DNA of 5,096 nucleotides from positions 1 to 5,096 of IMG/VR virus record IMGVR_UViG_3300017613_000229; one strand, given 5' to 3'. Shown in pieces: positions 1-5,096 of this stretch. The DNA comes from a virus. Every line of letters starts with the position of its first letter. The stretch's first letter is position 1. The translations under genes were made by a program, and so were the position numbers. The notes under the pieces are model-generated. The model made no database searches. It had not been told where the DNA came from and saw only the letters and a program-made list of their open reading frames with translations.

Positions 1-121
1 CTTCCTTATCAGCGCAAGAAAAAAATATTGTCATTCAAATGGCAGAAATGGATTTAGCTATTCTTACTCAACCCGATTCGGGTGAAATGTATAGAAAATT
101 AAAATTATTAAAAGGAGTTAA
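1..121 (+). repeat. Terminal redundancy, left copy of a 121-nt direct repeat marking a circular genome
   Basis: By eye, 1..121 (cttccttatcagcgcaagaaaaaaatattg...aaaggagttaa) matches 4976..5096 exactly. The repeat lies inside a continuous reading frame (VP2). Confidence 0.9.
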
Positions 122-209
122 CGTAGGAAGTGCCGCTGCAGTTGCAGGAGGCACAGCAATGGAAGGATGGAAAATGATATTAAATAAAGTATTACAATTC
201 GCTAATTAA
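1..209 (+). CDS. VP2: VP2 minor capsid / DNA pilot protein, C-terminal part (continuation of 4411..4975 across the circular junction; first full codon at nt 3)
   Basis: The open frame runs from the window edge: ..[68 protein letters not shown], with stop TAA at 207..209. Joining 4411..4975 to 1..209 gives 774 nt, exactly 258 codons (257 aa plus stop), so the join is in frame. It is missing from the ORF track because it has no start codon in this copy. Confidence 0.85.
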   Translation, partial: SLSAQEKNIVIQMAEMDLAILTQPDSGEMYRKLKLLKGVNVGSAAAVAGGTAMEGWKMILNKVLQFAN

Positions 210-221
210 TCGGAGATAAAC

Positions 222-683
222 ATGGAAATTCCATTTACTACAGCATATGGCGCAAAATTAAAGGTTCAATCTATTAATAATGATCCTTCAATGACTAAAC
301 AAAGTCTTAAAGACGATGCAGACGTCAATAAAATAATTAAACGCTATAATAAAACTGGCGTTTTACCCAACATGAATAAATTAGAAGCCGTTTACGGCGA
401 AATAACATCACAAGACCTACAGGACGCTATAAATAAAGTAGACGCCTCATACGAAGCATTCGCAGAAGTTCCGGCACCAATTAGAGCACTATTTAACAAT
501 AATGCAGGAGACTTCATCGATTACGCAACAAATCCACAAAACATTAAACAGATGACAAATTGGGGCTTAGCTAAGCTCCCAGAACATCATGTAAACATTG
601 ACGGTACATTTAACCAGGACGGAGATATAACAACAGGAGGCGAAGCCGACGCTACTCCAAATCCAGTACCTAATCCAGCATAA
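222..683 (+). CDS. VP3: VP3 internal scaffolding protein (Chlamydia-phage/gokushovirus scaffold family)
   Basis: 153-aa ORF with GGAG at 212..215, 6 nt upstream of the ATG. The stretch PSMTKQSLKDDADVNKIIKRYNKTG...FAEVPAPIRALFNNNAGDFIDY resembles the conserved gokushovirus VP3 pattern (recognised from memory, not searched). It sits directly after VP2, as in known gokushoviruses. Confidence 0.85.
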   Translation: MEIPFTTAYGAKLKVQSINNDPSMTKQSLKDDADVNKIIKRYNKTGVLPNMNKLEAVYGEITSQDLQDAINKVDASYEAFAEVPAPIRALFNNNAGDFIDYATNPQNIKQMTNWGLAKLPEHHVNIDGTFNQDGDITTGGEADATPNPVPNPA

Positions 684-692
684 AATAAAACA

Positions 693-724
693 GGGAACAG
701 TTACTACTTGATGTAACTGTTCCC
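693..724 (+). promoter_or_regulatory. Perfect 12-bp stem / 8-nt loop hairpin; candidate (+)-strand origin nick-site hairpin and/or transcript 3' end structure
   Basis: gggaacagttac (693..704) is the exact reverse complement of gtaactgttccc (713..724). The loop is TACTTGAT (705..712). It lies 10 nt after the VP3 stop and has no T-tract after the stem. Confidence 0.6.
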
Positions 725-726
725 AC

Positions 727-743
727 TGACACCAAAAGTGTCA
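727..743 (+). promoter_or_regulatory. Second hairpin (6-bp stem, 5-nt loop) in the intergenic region
   Basis: tgacac (727..732) pairs with gtgtca (738..743); the loop is caaaa. Confidence 0.4.
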
Positions 744-751
744 AAAACAGA

Positions 752-778
752 GATATTTGCGCCTTAGCGCAACATATC
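752..778 (+). promoter_or_regulatory. Third hairpin (6-bp GC-rich core, extendable to 11 bp with one bulged C)
   Basis: ttgcgc (757..762) pairs with gcgcaa (767..772); the loop is ctta. The flanks gatat (752..756) and atatc (774..778) pair if c773 is bulged. Confidence 0.45.
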
Positions 779-793
779 AGCAAAAAAAACTAG

Positions 794-823
794 TAGACAG
801 TTAACAAAAAATATTATTATAAT
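794..823 (+). promoter_or_regulatory. Candidate sigma70-type promoter for the accessory cassette and downstream genes
   Basis: TAGACA (794..799, 5/6 match to TTGACA), an 18-nt spacer, then TATAAT (818..823, perfect -10). It lies in the only sizeable non-coding stretch, upstream of same-strand genes. Confidence 0.4.
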
Positions 824-913
824 TAAGCAACAGCTATAGTATTGATATTTAACACTTTATACATTATGCGCAGTTCGCATAATAAACTCTTAGAAATCAA
901 GGAGTTATATATT

Positions 914-1069
914 ATGAATTTATTCAAAGCAATTAGAATCGGTGTAGCAATTCTAGATTGGTATGAAGAAGCATCAGAAGATGACCAAATCACTGGAAAA
1001 GAAATAGGTGAATTATTAGCTAAAATTACAACTTCAGAACTAGCCCAACATATTAATATTGAGTTATGA
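914..1069 (+). CDS. Small acidic hypothetical protein (51 aa), translationally coupled to the downstream peptidase
   Basis: AAGGAG at 899..904 lies 9 nt upstream of ATG 914. The product is MNLFKAIRIGVAILDWYEEASEDDQITGKEIGELLAKITTSELAQHINIEL. Its stop TGA (1067..1069) overlaps the peptidase ATG (1066..1068) as ATGA. The track's 75-aa version begins at a TTG (842) with no SD. I recognise no family. Confidence 0.45.
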   Translation: MNLFKAIRIGVAILDWYEEASEDDQITGKEIGELLAKITTSELAQHINIEL

Positions 1070-1383
1070 ACATCGACTTCAAGGAAGGAGTAACACCAGA
1101 CAAGCTTAAAGCTATCACCTTTCGCGCAATATTTATTTGCGCAGAAGTATTCAATCGAAAAAATTATCAATTAATAATTACATCAACACACGAAGGCGAT
1201 CACCTTCCCAATAGTTATCATTATAACGGTCAAGCATTCGATATTCGCACCTGGCGAATCCCTCAAACCTTCTTACCTTCAATGTGCGCAAAATTAACTA
1301 AAGCACTTCATGAAATAGATACAGACTTTCAAGTCATCTTAGAACCAGACCATATACACATCGAACTAGACAACAGGAAATAA
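1066..1383 (+). CDS. M15-family / LAS-type zinc peptidase (VanY or L-Ala-D-Glu peptidase-like), putative peptidoglycan hydrolase (endolysin)
   Basis: The 105-aa ORF contains SYHYNGQAFD (aa 50-59, nt 1213..1242), which fits SxHxxGxAxD with the H-x6-D zinc ligands. It also contains DHIH (aa 95-98, nt 1348..1359), which fits the DxxH third-ligand motif. Spacing and order match small phage M15 endolysins. Assigned by motif only, with no search run. Confidence 0.75.
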   Translation: MNIDFKEGVTPDKLKAITFRAIFICAEVFNRKNYQLIITSTHEGDHLPNSYHYNGQAFDIRTWRIPQTFLPSMCAKLTKALHEIDTDFQVILEPDHIHIELDNRK

Positions 1384-1387
1384 AACT

Positions 1388-1498
1388 ATGAAACGTTATC
1401 CAACTAAAAACTCAAGCCAAAAATTTAGAAACACAGCAGGTCTACAGCACAAATTCAACACGCTAGCACCAATAGCAAGAGGCGGTACCCGGCTCTAA
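1388..1498 (+). CDS. Small basic DNA-binding/packaging protein (phiX174 J-like / gokushovirus ORF8-like), 36 aa
   Basis: AGGA at 1375..1378 lies 9 nt upstream of ATG 1388. The product MKRYPTKNSSQKFRNTAGLQHKFNTLAPIARGGTRL has 8 K/R, 1 H and no acidic residues. It ends in RGGTRL, resembling the RGGIR(L/F) C-terminus I recall for chlamydiaphage ORF8. It sits between VP3 and VP4, as ORF8 does. It is not in the ORF track, being too short. Confidence 0.6.
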   Translation: MKRYPTKNSSQKFRNTAGLQHKFNTLAPIARGGTRL

Positions 1499-1499
1499 T

Positions 1500-1515
1500 G
1501 TATTCATATGAATAC
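1500..1515. repeat. 16-bp perfect palindrome upstream of VP4
   Basis: gtattcatatgaatac is its own reverse complement, centred on CATATG. It lies 2 nt after the J-like stop and 66 nt before the VP4 ATG. Confidence 0.5.
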
Positions 1516-1581
1516 GAAAAACACGTTCTATTCTTAGCAGAATTAAACAATACAAAAATACCATATTATTACGGTGCCTAA

Positions 1582-2565
1582 ATGCCATGCTACACACCCT
1601 TAGACGCATACGAAATTACAAGCAAATCACACCAGAAACCCAACGGGAAGAAATCAATAGTATTCAAACGTCCTCAAGAAACTACATACAAGGAAATGCA
1701 AGTACCTTGCGGACAATGTATCGGGTGCAAACTACTACGCAGCGTTACATGGGCATCGAGATGCATGCACGAGGCTTCACTACATGAACACAATTCATTT
1801 ATTACTCTTACCTATGATGACCAAAACTTACCTCAAGATCATTCACTTAGGAAAGACCATTTTCAAAACTTTCTTAAACGATTTAGAAAAGCTATCCATC
1901 CGATCAAAATACGTTATCTTATGTGTGGCGAATACGGTGACGATTCTTGGCGTCCTCACTATCACGCAATTATCTTCGGCTATGACTTTACACAAGGAAT
2001 TAAATATAACAAACAATGGTGCGAACGTAGACAACAAGTACAATCAGCAGAAGTCGAAAATCCTTACTATATCTCTCCCCTGCTCTCAAAATTATGGCCA
2101 GATGGATTCCATATTATCGCAGACGTTACCTTTGATACAGCCGCATATGTCGCTAGATACTGCACAAAAAAAATTACAGGTGATGAAGCAGAAGCACACT
2201 ACACCAGGAACATACTTGACTGGAATGAGTACACAGGAGAAATATTCCACTTTCAAGAAGTACAACTGGAACCAGAATACGGAACCATGTCAAGAAGACC
2301 AGGCATTGGTAAAGAATGGTACGAAAAATATAAACAAGATTGTTACCCATCAAACTTCCTTATTAACGATGGACATAAAACACCCATACCAAAATATTAT
2401 GACAAATTATTAGAACAAGAAGACGAACTACAATTTAAAGCAATGAAAACAGCAAGAGAATTAGCACTAATAGCACATAAAGATGATTTAACGCCAGAAA
2501 GACTGGCACAGAGACACACAACTAAACTAGCTCAATACGGGCAACTGAGGAGAAACAAAATATGA
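1582..2565 (+). CDS. VP4: VP4 replication initiation protein (HUH rolling-circle endonuclease, Microviridae gene A family)
   Basis: The 327-aa ORF has an N-terminal Cys cluster PCGQCIGC. Motif 1 is FITLTY (1798..1815), the HUH motif is HYHAIIF (1957..1977), and the catalytic di-tyrosine motif YVARY followed by CTKK (Y-x3-Y) is at 2146..2160. Confidence 0.93.
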   Translation: MPCYTPLDAYEITSKSHQKPNGKKSIVFKRPQETTYKEMQVPCGQCIGCKLLRSVTWASRCMHEASLHEHNSFITLTYDDQNLPQDHSLRKDHFQNFLKRFRKAIHPIKIRYLMCGEYGDDSWRPHYHAIIFGYDFTQGIKYNKQWCERRQQVQSAEVENPYYISPLLSKLWPDGFHIIADVTFDTAAYVARYCTKKITGDEAEAHYTRNILDWNEYTGEIFHFQEVQLEPEYGTMSRRPGIGKEWYEKYKQDCYPSNFLINDGHKTPIPKYYDKLLEQEDELQFKAMKTARELALIAHKDDLTPERLAQRHTTKLAQYGQLRRNKI

Positions 2566-2819
2566 AAATTAATATGTATTCAGTATACGACGATAAAGCA
2601 AAAGTATATTCACAACCATTTACAGCTATCAATGATGAAGTAGCTCAAAGAATTATGAAAAATTGCGTAGATAATCCAGAACATAATTACGCGCTTAATC
2701 CAGAAGATTACAAACTATTTAAGATCAGCTCTTTCGATGATTCAAATGCAGTTATAGATCCAGATAAAATACCACTATTAGACCTTATTACTTTAAAACG
2801 TACGGAGCCAGAACAATGA
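2562..2819 (+). CDS. VP5: VP5-like small non-structural protein (conserved gokushovirus ORF between VP4 and VP1)
   Basis: The 85-aa ORF has GAGGAG at 2547..2552, 9 nt upstream of the ATG. Both ends overlap neighbours as ATGA (VP4 stop at 2563..2565, VP1 start at 2816). YSVYDDKAKVYSQPFTAINDEVAQRIM...NPEDYKLFKISSFDD resembles the conserved pattern at this position in gokushoviruses (from memory). Confidence 0.7.
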   Translation: MKINMYSVYDDKAKVYSQPFTAINDEVAQRIMKNCVDNPEHNYALNPEDYKLFKISSFDDSNAVIDPDKIPLLDLITLKRTEPEQ

Positions 2820-4411
2820 AATCAAACATGGTAAATAGATTTACTCAAACACCAGAGGCAAATACACCACGTTCAACTTTCGATATGTCACATGGACATA
2901 AAACAACCATAGACGTAGATTATTTATATCCAATATATATTGAAGAAGCTCTCCCAGGGGACACACTCAATGTAAACATGACTGGCTTTGCAAGACTCAA
3001 TACACCTATATTTCCTATTATGGATAATATGACAATGCAAACCTTCTTCTTCGAAGTACCCACTAGATTAGTATGGGAAAACTTTAGAGCATTTATGGGT
3101 GAAAGACATCCAGATCCAGATTCAACTATTGATTACACAGTTCCCCAAGCAGTCGCAACATCCTCCTCAAATTTGGTCGGTCTACTTAGCGACTATATGG
3201 GAATACCCATAGAAGTAGACGGCCTTTCTTATTCAAACTTATTTCATAGGTCATATAATATGATATGGAATGAGTGGTTCAGAGATCAAAACTTACAAGA
3301 TTCAGTTACAGTGGATACAGATGCGGGGCCAGATGCTCCCGCAGATTACGTCTTATTAAAAGCAAACAAACGACATGACTATTTCACATCAGCCCTACCC
3401 TGGCCACAAAAAGGAGATTCAGTAGATTTACCATTAGGTACATCAGCACCAGTTACAGGCATAGGCGCAGTAAATCAAACATTCAATACAGGACCATCAA
3501 CTGCTTATGAGACAGATGGAACCGGTACGGAATCATATGCAGATCATAAAAATATATGGGATGCAGGATCACAAAATCAAATATATATAGAAGAAGACCC
3601 AAACAATGCAGGCTTTCCAAATATTAGAGCAGATTTATCAGCAGCTACATCAGCAACAATTAATCAATTAAGAGAAGCATTTCAAATACAAAAACTTTTA
3701 GAACGAGATGCAAGAGGCGGTACCAGGTACACAGAAATAATCCGCTCACACTTCAATGTAACAAGCCCAGATGGTAGAGCATGGAGACCTGTATATCTCG
3801 GAGGCGGCAAATCTTATGTCAATATATCGCCAATTGCTCAAACTTCTTCTACAGATGTTACAACGCCCCAGGGAAACTTGGCTGCAATGGGTACTAGTGT
3901 TCTCGATAATCATGGCTTCACTAAGTCTTTCACTGAGCATAGTATTGTTATTGGTCTCGTATGCGTACGTGCAGACTTAACCTATCAACAAGGACTAAAC
4001 AGACATTTCAGCCGTTCAACACGTTATGATTACTACTGGCCTTCCCTATCAACTATTGGTGAACAAGAAGTACTTAATAAAGAAATATATGCTCAAAACG
4101 ATGCAAACGATGACTTAGTATTTGGCTATCAAGAACGCTATGCAGAATACCGCTACAAACCTTCCATGATAACCGGAAAAATGCGGTCAGCTATCGGAGC
4201 GCATACAGGCAGCCTTGACTCATGGCACTTAGCAGAAGAATTCGGCTCCCTACCCGCTTTAAACTCAACTTTTATCGCATCTAATACACCAGTCGATAGA
4301 GTAGTAGCAGTAACAGACGAGCCAGATTTCTTACTCGATACATTCTTCAATATCAAAGCAGCCAGACCTATGCCACTTTATGGCATTCCAGGCATGCTAG
4401 ACCACTTCTGA
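2816..4411 (+). CDS. VP1: VP1 major capsid protein (Microviridae F-type capsid, gokushovirus form)
   Basis: The 531-aa ORF has GGAG at 2804..2807, 8 nt upstream of the ATG. The N-terminus [32 protein letters not shown]...[33 protein letters not shown] is the hallmark gokushovirus VP1 signature. Size is typical. Confidence 0.95.
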
Positions 4412-5096
4412 TGAAACATTTAAAACTACCTTACAAACAACTAGGCTTTATAGGAAGCCTAATATCAGCCGGCGCCAGCTTACTTGGTGGTGCCCTGGCT
4501 AATAGAGGCAGACAACAAGCAGCTTCAACAGTAGGACAATTTAATCAAGCATCATCAGCAACACAAATGGCATTCGAAGAAAGAATGTCAAACACAGCAC
4601 ATCAACGACAAGTAAAAGACTTAAGAGCAGCCGGACTTAATCCAATACTCTCAGCAAAATATGGCGGCGCATCAACACCACATGGATCCACTGCAACGAT
4701 GCCAATGTACGACCAACAAGATATATTCACACCTGCCGTTAATTCAGGCTTACAGGCATATCATACACAAAATCAAGGTGCTAAAATAAATACTGAGATA
4801 CAGCAAATGGAGCAAAACATTGAAGAATCCAAAGCAAAAGCCAATCTTAGTGACCATCAAGCACGAAAAATCAATTACGAGATTCCTAAAATTATTGCAG
4901 ATACTAATCTTTCTCGTGATTCTGGGCATAATATTCAAACAGATACTCAGTTAAAAAAACTGCAATCCGTTGTTACTTCCTTATCAGCGCAAGAAAAAAA
5001 TATTGTCATTCAAATGGCAGAAATGGATTTAGCTATTCTTACTCAACCCGATTCGGGTGAAATGTATAGAAAATTAAAATTATTAAAAGGAGTTAA
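4411..5096 (+). CDS. VP2: VP2 minor capsid / DNA pilot protein, N-terminal part (runs off the window end; unique part ends at 4975 and continues at nt 1)
   Basis: ATG 4411 overlaps the VP1 stop (TGATG). There is no stop through 5096. The N-terminus is Gly/Ala-rich and hydrophobic ([20 protein letters not shown]). It is followed by [29 protein letters not shown], the conserved gokushovirus VP2 motif, then a long heptad-like Q/E/K-rich segment. It is absent from the ORF track because it has no stop in the window. Confidence 0.85.
4976..5096 (+). repeat. Terminal redundancy, right copy of the 121-nt direct repeat
   Basis: Identical to 1..121 by eye. Confidence 0.9.

Follow-up and report, generated by a model that had tools for sequence, protein, structure and literature searches.

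The window analysed here is a stretch of 5,096 nucleotides (nt) of viral DNA, positions 1 to 5,096 of IMG/VR virus record IMGVR_UViG_3300017613_000229. It represents the circular genome of a gokushovirus of 4975 nt, written with an exact overlap of 121 nt (1–121 = 4976–5096). Downstream of the scaffold gene VP3 lies a perfect hairpin (positions 693–724), which together with its 3′ flank up to position 733 probably forms the viral-strand (double-strand) origin of rolling-circle replication. This reading appears well supported by comparison with related genomes. Cleavage by the initiator protein VP4 would, by analogy with phiX174, take place between G710 and A711. Rolling-circle double-strand origins are a known kind of element. 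The searched literature describes neither a gokushovirus origin nor this hairpin, although a passing remark in older subscription literature is possible.

The Hairpin and its Nick Core

Positions 693–724 read GGGAACAGTTAC TACTTGAT GTAACTGTTCCC on the + strand. The 5′ arm (GGGAACAGTTAC, 693–704) pairs over 12 base pairs (bp) with the 3′ arm (GTAACTGTTCCC, 713–724), of which the first bases, GTAA, are conserved in sequence among relatives. Between the arms, a loop of 8 nt (TACTTGAT, 705–712) carries the phiX174-type nick core ACTTG|AT, with the predicted VP4 cleavage site at 710–711. On the 3′ side the stem is followed by the conserved flank ACTGACACC (725–733, + strand), a candidate binding ('bind') site for VP4. 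A second small hairpin, TGACAC-CAAAA-GTGTCA, is predicted at 727–743 of the + strand; it is an inverted repeat of the flank motif and an optional part of the element. Rfam gave no match at E ≤ 1.

An earlier sequence-only reading of this DNA had described the perfect 12-bp stem with its 8-nt loop and had called it the strongest structure of the genome. The arms are indeed 100% complementary, and they form the longest perfect non-overlapping inverted repeat of hairpin type in the window. Folded as DNA, the region 688–730 reaches −12.2 kcal/mol (z = −6.1), and none of 200 shuffled sequences folds as well. The position that was given for the hairpin, after VP3 in the large non-coding region, is correct as well: it starts 9 nt 3′ of the VP3 stop codon, in the largest non-coding stretch of the genome (684–913).

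The same reading gave the phiX174 nick sequence as CAACTTG|ATA. This agrees with the reference genome (NC_001422), in which positions 4299–4328 read CAACTTGATATTAATAACACTATAGACCAC and the replication origin is annotated at 4306, placing the nick at G4305|A4306. It had further pointed out that ACTTGAT occurs only once in the window. The count is right (706–712, + strand), but its uniqueness was rejected as evidence because approximately one copy is expected by chance (mean 0.99; at least one copy in 133 of 200 shuffles). The shorter CTTGAT is present in six copies, with four expected, and its sole + strand copy is located at 707–712.

Conservation Across Gokushoviruses

A megablast search with the whole genome against 50,697 GenBank phage records returned eight records. 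Five of these matched solely over 693–736 (93–96% identity) and three solely over part of the VP1 gene (71–72%). With positions 600–960 as a blastn query, 36 records were found, originating from marine, insect, tunicate, reptile and mammalian gut samples, each matching just the region of approximately 690–743 with 85–95% identity. The stretch of approximately 45 nt from 693 to about 736 contains the most conserved nucleotides of the genome across the Gokushovirinae, and the element is conserved in more than 250 distant relatives.

As a guard against circularity, relatives were gathered by their capsid protein alone. This yielded 80 IMG/VR contigs with a VP1 identity of 55–84%, in which VP1 was set on the + strand. 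A loose regular expression detected the element in approximately 50 of them, on the + strand in every case. A covariance model built from a structure-blind MAFFT alignment of 51 distinct copies detected it in approximately 70, and additionally in one VP4-derived contig and in phage phiMH2K. Two further capsid-derived sets brought the sample to 208 contigs, 177 of which gave a confident call. The element is also present in all six capsid-gene-matched contigs from bacterial genome assemblies and metagenome-assembled genomes (MAGs). The sequence-only reading had made its candidate origin depend on conservation of both hairpin and loop motif in relatives, and both proved to be conserved.

In 63 of 73 genomes the element directly follows VP3, usually at a distance of a few to approximately 100 nt and mostly before VP8 or VP4. 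It remains after VP3 in the gene order VP5-VP3-[element]-VP1. Other locations are after VP5, in phiMH2K and contig L189, and between VP2 and VP4, in KT264767. Contigs L165, L176, L222, L233, L244, L308 and L069 each contain the element twice. They exceed a single genome unit in length and probably represent concatemeric or over-circularised assemblies; the copies in L176, L222, L233 and L244 differ in score, which hints at mixed variants. A sequence that recurred in large phage contigs in the first pattern scan, GGACAGTTAGCTTCGTCAAGAACTGT..., was discarded because its contigs have neither VP1 nor VP4.

A Co-varying Stem and a Sequence-conserved Loop and Flank

In the structure-blind alignment of 51 sequences, 11 of the 12 stem pairs show changes on both sides. 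Paired cells amount to 84.8%, compared to 30–41% when the 3′ partner is slid by one to three columns. The covariation score is 0.348, compared to at most 0.088 for slid partners, and none of 500 shuffles attains the observed values. The stem is thus kept as a structure and not as a sequence, and it is under selection. Its diversity is illustrated by the stems GGCCATTT/AAATGGCC, GACTATATA/TATATAGTC and GGGCATAAT/ATTATGCCC of different relatives.

What is conserved in the 5′ arm is mainly its complementarity to the 3′ arm. Conservation of sequence is seen in the loop (3′ half), at the start of the 3′ arm and in the flank that adjoins the stem on its 3′ side. These parts follow the pattern (T/C)A-CTTGAT-GT(A/T)A, stem, A(C/G)TGACAC(C), in which the 3′ part of the loop reads CT(T/A)GATGTAA. 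Among 139 unique relatives the consensus is (T/C)A-CTTGAT-GTAA and (T/C)ACTTGATGTAA. At the positions that were not fixed by anchoring, the frequencies are 1.00 for T2, 0.89 for T3 (A 0.09), 0.95 for A5, 0.93 for G7 and 0.78 for A9. GT(A/T)A persists even in copies that lack pairing with the opposite bases. The predicted nick dinucleotide lies within the hairpin in 138 of the 139 copies and is unpaired in 109 of the 139 minimum-energy folds, with a median loop of 9 nt and a median contiguous stem of 8 bp.

The flank motif TGAC[AT][ACG] is found in 127 of 135 relatives. Counted from the predicted nick, information content is high for 23 nt in the 3′ direction and near zero beyond, so that the conserved block spans approximately −5 to +23. 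As it is sequence and not structure that is conserved in the loop's 3′ half and in the 3′ flank, they point to a sequence-specific protein, and VP4 would be expected to bind at the flank TGACACC (727–733). An inverted second copy of the flank hexamer, which in the window forms the hairpin at 727–743, is present in just 14 of 135 relatives and an upstream copy in one of 135. Iteron-like repeats of the flank were therefore rejected as a general feature, and the hairpin at 727–743 is not a core part of the element. Flank TGACA was also considered as a −35 box. This was rejected as well: no conserved −10 box follows, the information content is zero after +27 and there is no promoter call at this location.

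The Element in Cultured Phages

Three cultured gokushoviruses with hosts from three phyla carry ACTTG(A/T)T in a hairpin loop. In Chp2 the hairpin is located after VP3 (2904–2941), with a 14-bp stem (CTAGCGTATAACAG/CTGTTATACGCTAG), the loop TCTACTTGAT and the 3′ flank GTGATAGC. SpV4 has a 10-bp stem at 512–544 with the loop ATTACTTGTTATA and the 3′ flank TTGACGAC. In phiMH2K an 11-bp stem after VP5 (3296–3335) encloses the loop GGACCCTACTTGTTGTAA (...CTACTTGTTGTAA), and here the 3′ flank is non-matching (CACAG...). By chance, a hairpin with ACTTG[AT]T in its loop (≤18 nt) and a perfect stem of at least 8 bp turns up zero to five times per 3000 shuffled genomes. The presence of the same loop sequence across three host phyla points to a phage-encoded reader. 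Host priming and transcription factors differ between these hosts while VP4 is shared, which favors VP4 in this role.

VP4 and Comparison with Known Origins

VP4 (1582–2565, + strand) matches the Pfam family REP_ORF2-G2P (E = 3.8e-22), and no helicase domain was found in it. It contains motif 1, FITLTY (1798–1815, + strand), the HUH motif HYHAI (1957–1971, + strand) and the pair Y189-V-A-R-Y193 (2146–2160, + strand), the two tyrosines being present as the sequence-only reading had assumed. All three motifs align with phiX174 protein A in a BLASTP comparison (E = 7e-5), HYHAI with HFHAV and Y189VARY193 with Y343VAKY347. Judged by this alignment, VP4 is homologous to protein A, with both catalytic tyrosines aligned. 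A PDB sequence search with VP4 yielded no relative. According to a published network analysis, Gokushovirinae and Bullavirinae Reps form a monophyletic group (PMC6668415).

The closest counterpart of the element is the origin of phiX174/G4-type phages (Bullavirinae). Both have the nick core ACTTG|AT, seven contiguous bases of the phiX174 decamer, of which the first two bases are unshared. Relatives with CTTGATGTTAA match phiX174 CTTGATATTAA at 10 of 11 positions. In both systems a homologous HUH initiator with two tyrosines spaced Y-x-x-x-Y is encoded in the same genome, the block begins a few nt before the nick on the 5′ side and ends 23 nt beyond it on the 3′ side, and it lies on the gene-sense strand, here in most genomes. 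They differ in that the nick core is situated here in the loop of a co-varying hairpin of 8–14 bp, whereas the phiX174 core is not in a hairpin. Moreover, the 3′ part consists here of a stem arm and TGACACC, whereas that of phiX174 is an AT-rich spacer followed by ACTATAGACCAC. Because it is intergenic and hairpin-borne and has an unmatched 3′ part, the element is classified as a variant and not as the same origin type as that of phiX174.

The double-strand origins of pC194/pUB110 (Rep_1) belong to plasmids and not to a virus, and no packaging is involved. Their Rep has one catalytic tyrosine plus a glutamate, and we know of no conserved hairpin of this kind in these origins. The pC194 origin, which is cut by another HUH Rep, contains TCTTGATAATAA and has CTTGATA in common with the element (TTCTTATCTTGATAATAAGGG; PMC7072734). 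The pC194/pUB110 initiator belongs, like VP4, to the HUH superfamily (PMC5714925).

The origins of CRESS-DNA viruses (circo-, gemini- and nanoviruses) and of pMV158/pT181 plasmids resemble the element in that compensatory changes preserve the stem, and the loop is preserved as sequence. The CRESS nonanucleotide, TAGTATTAC or TAATATTAC (NANTATTAC), is unrelated to the loop TACTTGAT. In CRESS-DNA as well as pMV158/pT181 origins, the nick site is single-stranded in the loop of a conserved intergenic hairpin, with the binding sequence adjacent to it (PMC5714925); here the nick is predicted. The Reps of both groups are unlike VP4 in having one tyrosine, and those of CRESS-DNA viruses also have a fused SF3 helicase (PMC6668415). 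Another difference with CRESS- and pMV158-type origins is that repeated iterons were not found in the present element. Reekeekee- and roodoodooviruses, too, have conserved intergenic hairpins that show compensatory substitutions; their authors proposed priming of the negative strand and noted that this function could not be certified (PMC9865509). Like the present element they were found by comparison alone. They occur, however, in other clades, have other sequences and come with no reported nick-site motif (PMC9865509).

Orientation of the Element and Strand Asymmetry

The element is co-oriented with the genes in the window and in 160 of 177 relatives. In 17 contigs (L162, L194, L204, L213, L214, L241, L246, L271, L272, L281, L282, L290, L303, L306, L321, L322 and L323) the whole element, flank included, is inverted compared to all genes, at the usual spot between VP3 and VP8. 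The inverted elements score 32–63 bits, far above the palindrome echoes of approximately 15 bits. As two later samples were picked as relatives of inverted genomes, 17 of 177 does not represent a frequency; inversion was found in 3 of 73 genomes of the first sample and in none of the 48 of the pattern-derived sample. Close relatives have the inversion in common (L194 with L213 and L214; L204 with L271 and L272), and it is therefore inherited rather than produced by assembly. By a rough parsimony count, orientation changed approximately eight times independently on the VP1 tree.

Orientation goes together with base composition on the coding strand, measured at fourfold-degenerate sites of VP1 and VP4 with statistics that ignore kinship. 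The median T fraction is 0.071 in inverted and 0.286 in co-oriented genomes (p = 6e-9), and the median TA skew −0.65 and +0.12, respectively (p = 7e-8). At GC4 ≥ 0.5 the latter values are −0.61 and +0.13 (p = 5e-7). When the 177 VP1 genes are ranked by third-position TA skew, inverted genomes occupy all ten lowest places. Within one group of relatives, L194, L213 and L214 have skews of −0.81 to −0.86, compared to +0.77 and +0.65 in the nearest co-oriented genomes, L215 and L217. The positive-sense references phiX174 (+0.75), Chp1 (+0.62), SpV4 (+0.40) and Chp2 (+0.35) are T-rich. The third-position GC skew shows no clean flip with orientation; T/A skew alone flips.

The simplest reading of these data is that the strand bearing CTTGAT is the strand that exists as single-stranded DNA. 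It is conceivable, and we put it forward tentatively, that the orientation of the element sets which strand is displaced and packaged, and that the inverted lineages package the antisense strand and are negative-sense microviruses. To our knowledge, all Microviridae described so far are taken to be positive-sense. If true, antisense packaging would overturn this assumption and would affect strand-specific virome methods.

Proposed Mechanism

On the supercoiled replicative form, the inverted repeat would extrude or breathe as a hairpin, so that the loop presents CTTG|AT in single-stranded form, as predicted by single-strand folding. VP4 would recognize the parts that are conserved in sequence: the loop's 3′ half, GT(A/T)A, and A(C/G)TGACAC(C) in the flank. 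By analogy with phiX174 protein A, Y189 or Y193 would then cut G710|A711 and stay attached to the 5′ phosphate, after which a host polymerase would extend the 3′-OH and displace the nicked strand. Once the origin is regenerated, the hairpin may re-form in the displaced strand, where the second tyrosine would cut and the first junction would be religated. A circular single strand would thereby be released for packaging, probably with VP5 and VP8. Since the nick would be made on the CTTGAT strand, this is the strand proposed to be displaced and packaged. Such a design would unite the loop nick and adjacent binding sequence of the pMV158/CRESS type with a nick sequence and a two-tyrosine initiator of the phiX174 type.

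Weighing the Evidence

A number of observations weigh against the interpretation of the element as the viral-strand origin. No element was called in 31 of the 208 capsid-selected contigs, of which at least 11 are partial (2.0–3.4 kb). In Chp1 neither the covariance model nor the hairpin scan revealed such an element, and the hairpin scan found no such hairpin in phiX174. The analogy with phiX174 is partial, since the origin of this phage lies inside the Rep gene, gene A, and the element is intergenic. The phiX174 origin extends over 30 nt. The likeness that the sequence-only reading had drawn concerns the 7-mer core. Overall 17 of 30 positions match, and outside the anchored 7-mer 10 of 23 (p ~0.06), which is non-significant, so extended similarity was rejected. 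The prophage relative L342, discussed below, has CTTGAAG in place of the near-invariant CTTGATG. With respect to the strand asymmetry, phiMH2K (−0.33) and the window itself (−0.37) are A-rich at fourfold sites despite co-oriented elements, and TA skew is negative in 40% of the co-oriented genomes. Furthermore, a complementary-strand origin would flip with the packaged strand too, and skew alone does not separate the two kinds of origin.

Such a complementary-strand (minus-strand) origin is the main rival explanation. The hairpin would then be read by host priming, i.e., the PriA primosome, primase or RNA polymerase, to start the conversion to double strand, like the phiX174 n′ site, the G4 origin and plasmid single-strand origins. 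Intergenic hairpins of single-stranded DNA phages do serve in this way (PMC9865509; PMC5714925). A strand-specific site on the packaged strand would be consistent with the inversion and skew results, and the non-coding region holds three further hairpins. These (727–743, 752–778 and 863–883) are, however, better candidates for this function. Host-dependent sites are not expected to keep a loop sequence across phages of Chlamydia, Bdellovibrio, Spiroplasma and a gammaproteobacterium. Moreover, conservation falls on the same letters as the phiX174 nick core, which belongs to a homologous system, and it is asymmetric around the putative nick (approximately −5 to +23), as in a nick-plus-bind origin. 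We consider a complementary-strand origin improbable. The element might alternatively be a packaging or late-stage signal for VP5, VP8 or the procapsid, with the nick site elsewhere. Cross-host conservation fits any phage-encoded binder, and the coupling of orientation and skew fits a signal on the packaged strand, but megablast and blastn revealed no other conserved nucleotide element in the genome to act as nick site, and the loop bears a nick core of the phiX174/pC194 type. In phiX174, packaging is tied to the origin-A-C complex. As origin and packaging signal coincide there, this quite improbable explanation largely merges with the origin reading.

Transcription termination or stabilization of the 3′ end of the VP1-VP2-VP3 mRNA would account for a hairpin 9 nt past the VP3 stop, directly after VP3 in 63 of 73 relatives, with a promoter-like site (794–823) downstream, and covariation would fit an RNA hairpin too. 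This function has nevertheless become very unlikely. There is no terminator call on the + strand, and TTTT occurs within 12 nt after the stem in none of 135 relatives; without such a T-run the element is not an intrinsic terminator. The call on the minus strand of the window rests on an A-rich run that is not found in relatives. Neither loop nor flank would need to be conserved in sequence for termination. In addition, the element occupies other places, following VP5 in phiMH2K and L189 and VP2 in KT264767, or lying between VP3 and VP1. Seventeen genomes carry it in inverted orientation, and prophage L342 has a separate canonical terminator between VP3 and the element. Least likely of all, to the point of being hardly credible, is that the element serves a site-specific recombinase (Xer-like or other). 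With its inverted arms and 8-nt spacer it does resemble recombinase core sites, and the phage lineage does use Xer/dif integration. Yet the conservation is reversed. In Xer/dif sites the conserved parts are 11-bp arms that bind the recombinase, separated by a 6-bp spacer; here the arms differ freely between phages and co-vary, and it is the 'spacer' and one flank that show conservation. A dif-like site is present separately at 847–874, and the prophage junctions lie there and not at the hairpin.

Relevance of the Element

The viral-strand origin, which we regard as the probable function, would be of interest because few single-stranded DNA phages of gut, marine and soil viromes are as abundant as gokushoviruses. 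An element of approximately 40 nt that is recognizable in most genomes provides VP4 biochemistry with a concrete substrate, genome coordinates with a natural zero point and the subfamily with a sensitive nucleotide marker. It could also serve as the cis part of gokushovirus phagemids or minimal replicons. By joining the phiX174/pC194 nick sequence to the loop-nick design of CRESS-DNA viruses and pMV158-type plasmids, it bears on the evolution of rolling-circle origins.

A Prophage Relative and a dif-like Site

The minus strand of the window contains a dif-like 28-mer, ACTGCGCATAATGTATAAAGTGTTAAAT (847–874), that matches a 28-nt E. coli chromosomal site, which we take to be dif, at 23 of 28 positions. 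The relative L342 (80% VP1 identity) is a prophage located at the end of a 354-kb gammaproteobacterial MAG contig. The identical 28-mer borders it on one side and a dif with a canonical XerD arm on the other (28–55 and 4981–5008), the two sites being 4953 nt apart, and the lineage is therefore temperate via Xer/dif. This integration route has been shown for E. coli gokushoviruses (PMC7062461). Two elements or regions, taken from contigs with the same gene order as the E. coli gokushovirus prophages (L174 and L008), gave no blastn match in complete E. coli genomes.

In L342 the origin hairpin is situated approximately 100 nt (about 90–155 nt, depending on the reference point) from the phage-type site. 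Between VP3 and this hairpin lies an intrinsic terminator, GCCTC-GAAA-GAGGC followed by seven T residues (terminator and hairpin at 4798–4826 and 4840–4875). The CTTGAAG loop may represent a decaying or variant origin.

Genome Layout

Every gene of the window is located on the + strand. VP3 (222–683, Pfam Chlamy_scaf) is followed by the non-coding region of 230 nt (684–913), the largest of the genome, and by three small open reading frames (ORFs; 914–1069, 1066–1383 and 1388–1498). Next come VP4, VP5 (2562–2819), the capsid gene VP1 (2816–4411) and VP2, which runs from 4411 through the circular junction to 209.

The non-coding region folds into four hairpins (z = −9.05). Besides the origin hairpin and the small one adjacent to it, stable hairpins are found at 752–778 (ATATTTGCGCC-TTAG-CGCAACATAT) and at 863–883 (ATTATGCG-CAGTT-CGCATAAT), the latter overlapping the XerC arm of the dif-like site. 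Both are candidates for the complementary-strand origin; the blastn search with 600–960 revealed no nucleotide-level conservation of them in distant relatives. Between the origin hairpin and the small ORFs and VP4, a strong sigma-70-like promoter sequence is present at 794–823 (TAGACA, 18 nt, TATAAT; 11/12), which may be an early promoter.

The ORFs at 914–1069 (51 aa) and 1066–1383 (105 aa) have no match in Pfam or PHROG. In iterative searches they were present in just four and nine of the compared genomes, respectively, the window included. The product of the 105-aa ORF has an H-x(n)-D ... H-x-H pattern, which presumably recalls small zinc peptidoglycan peptidases.

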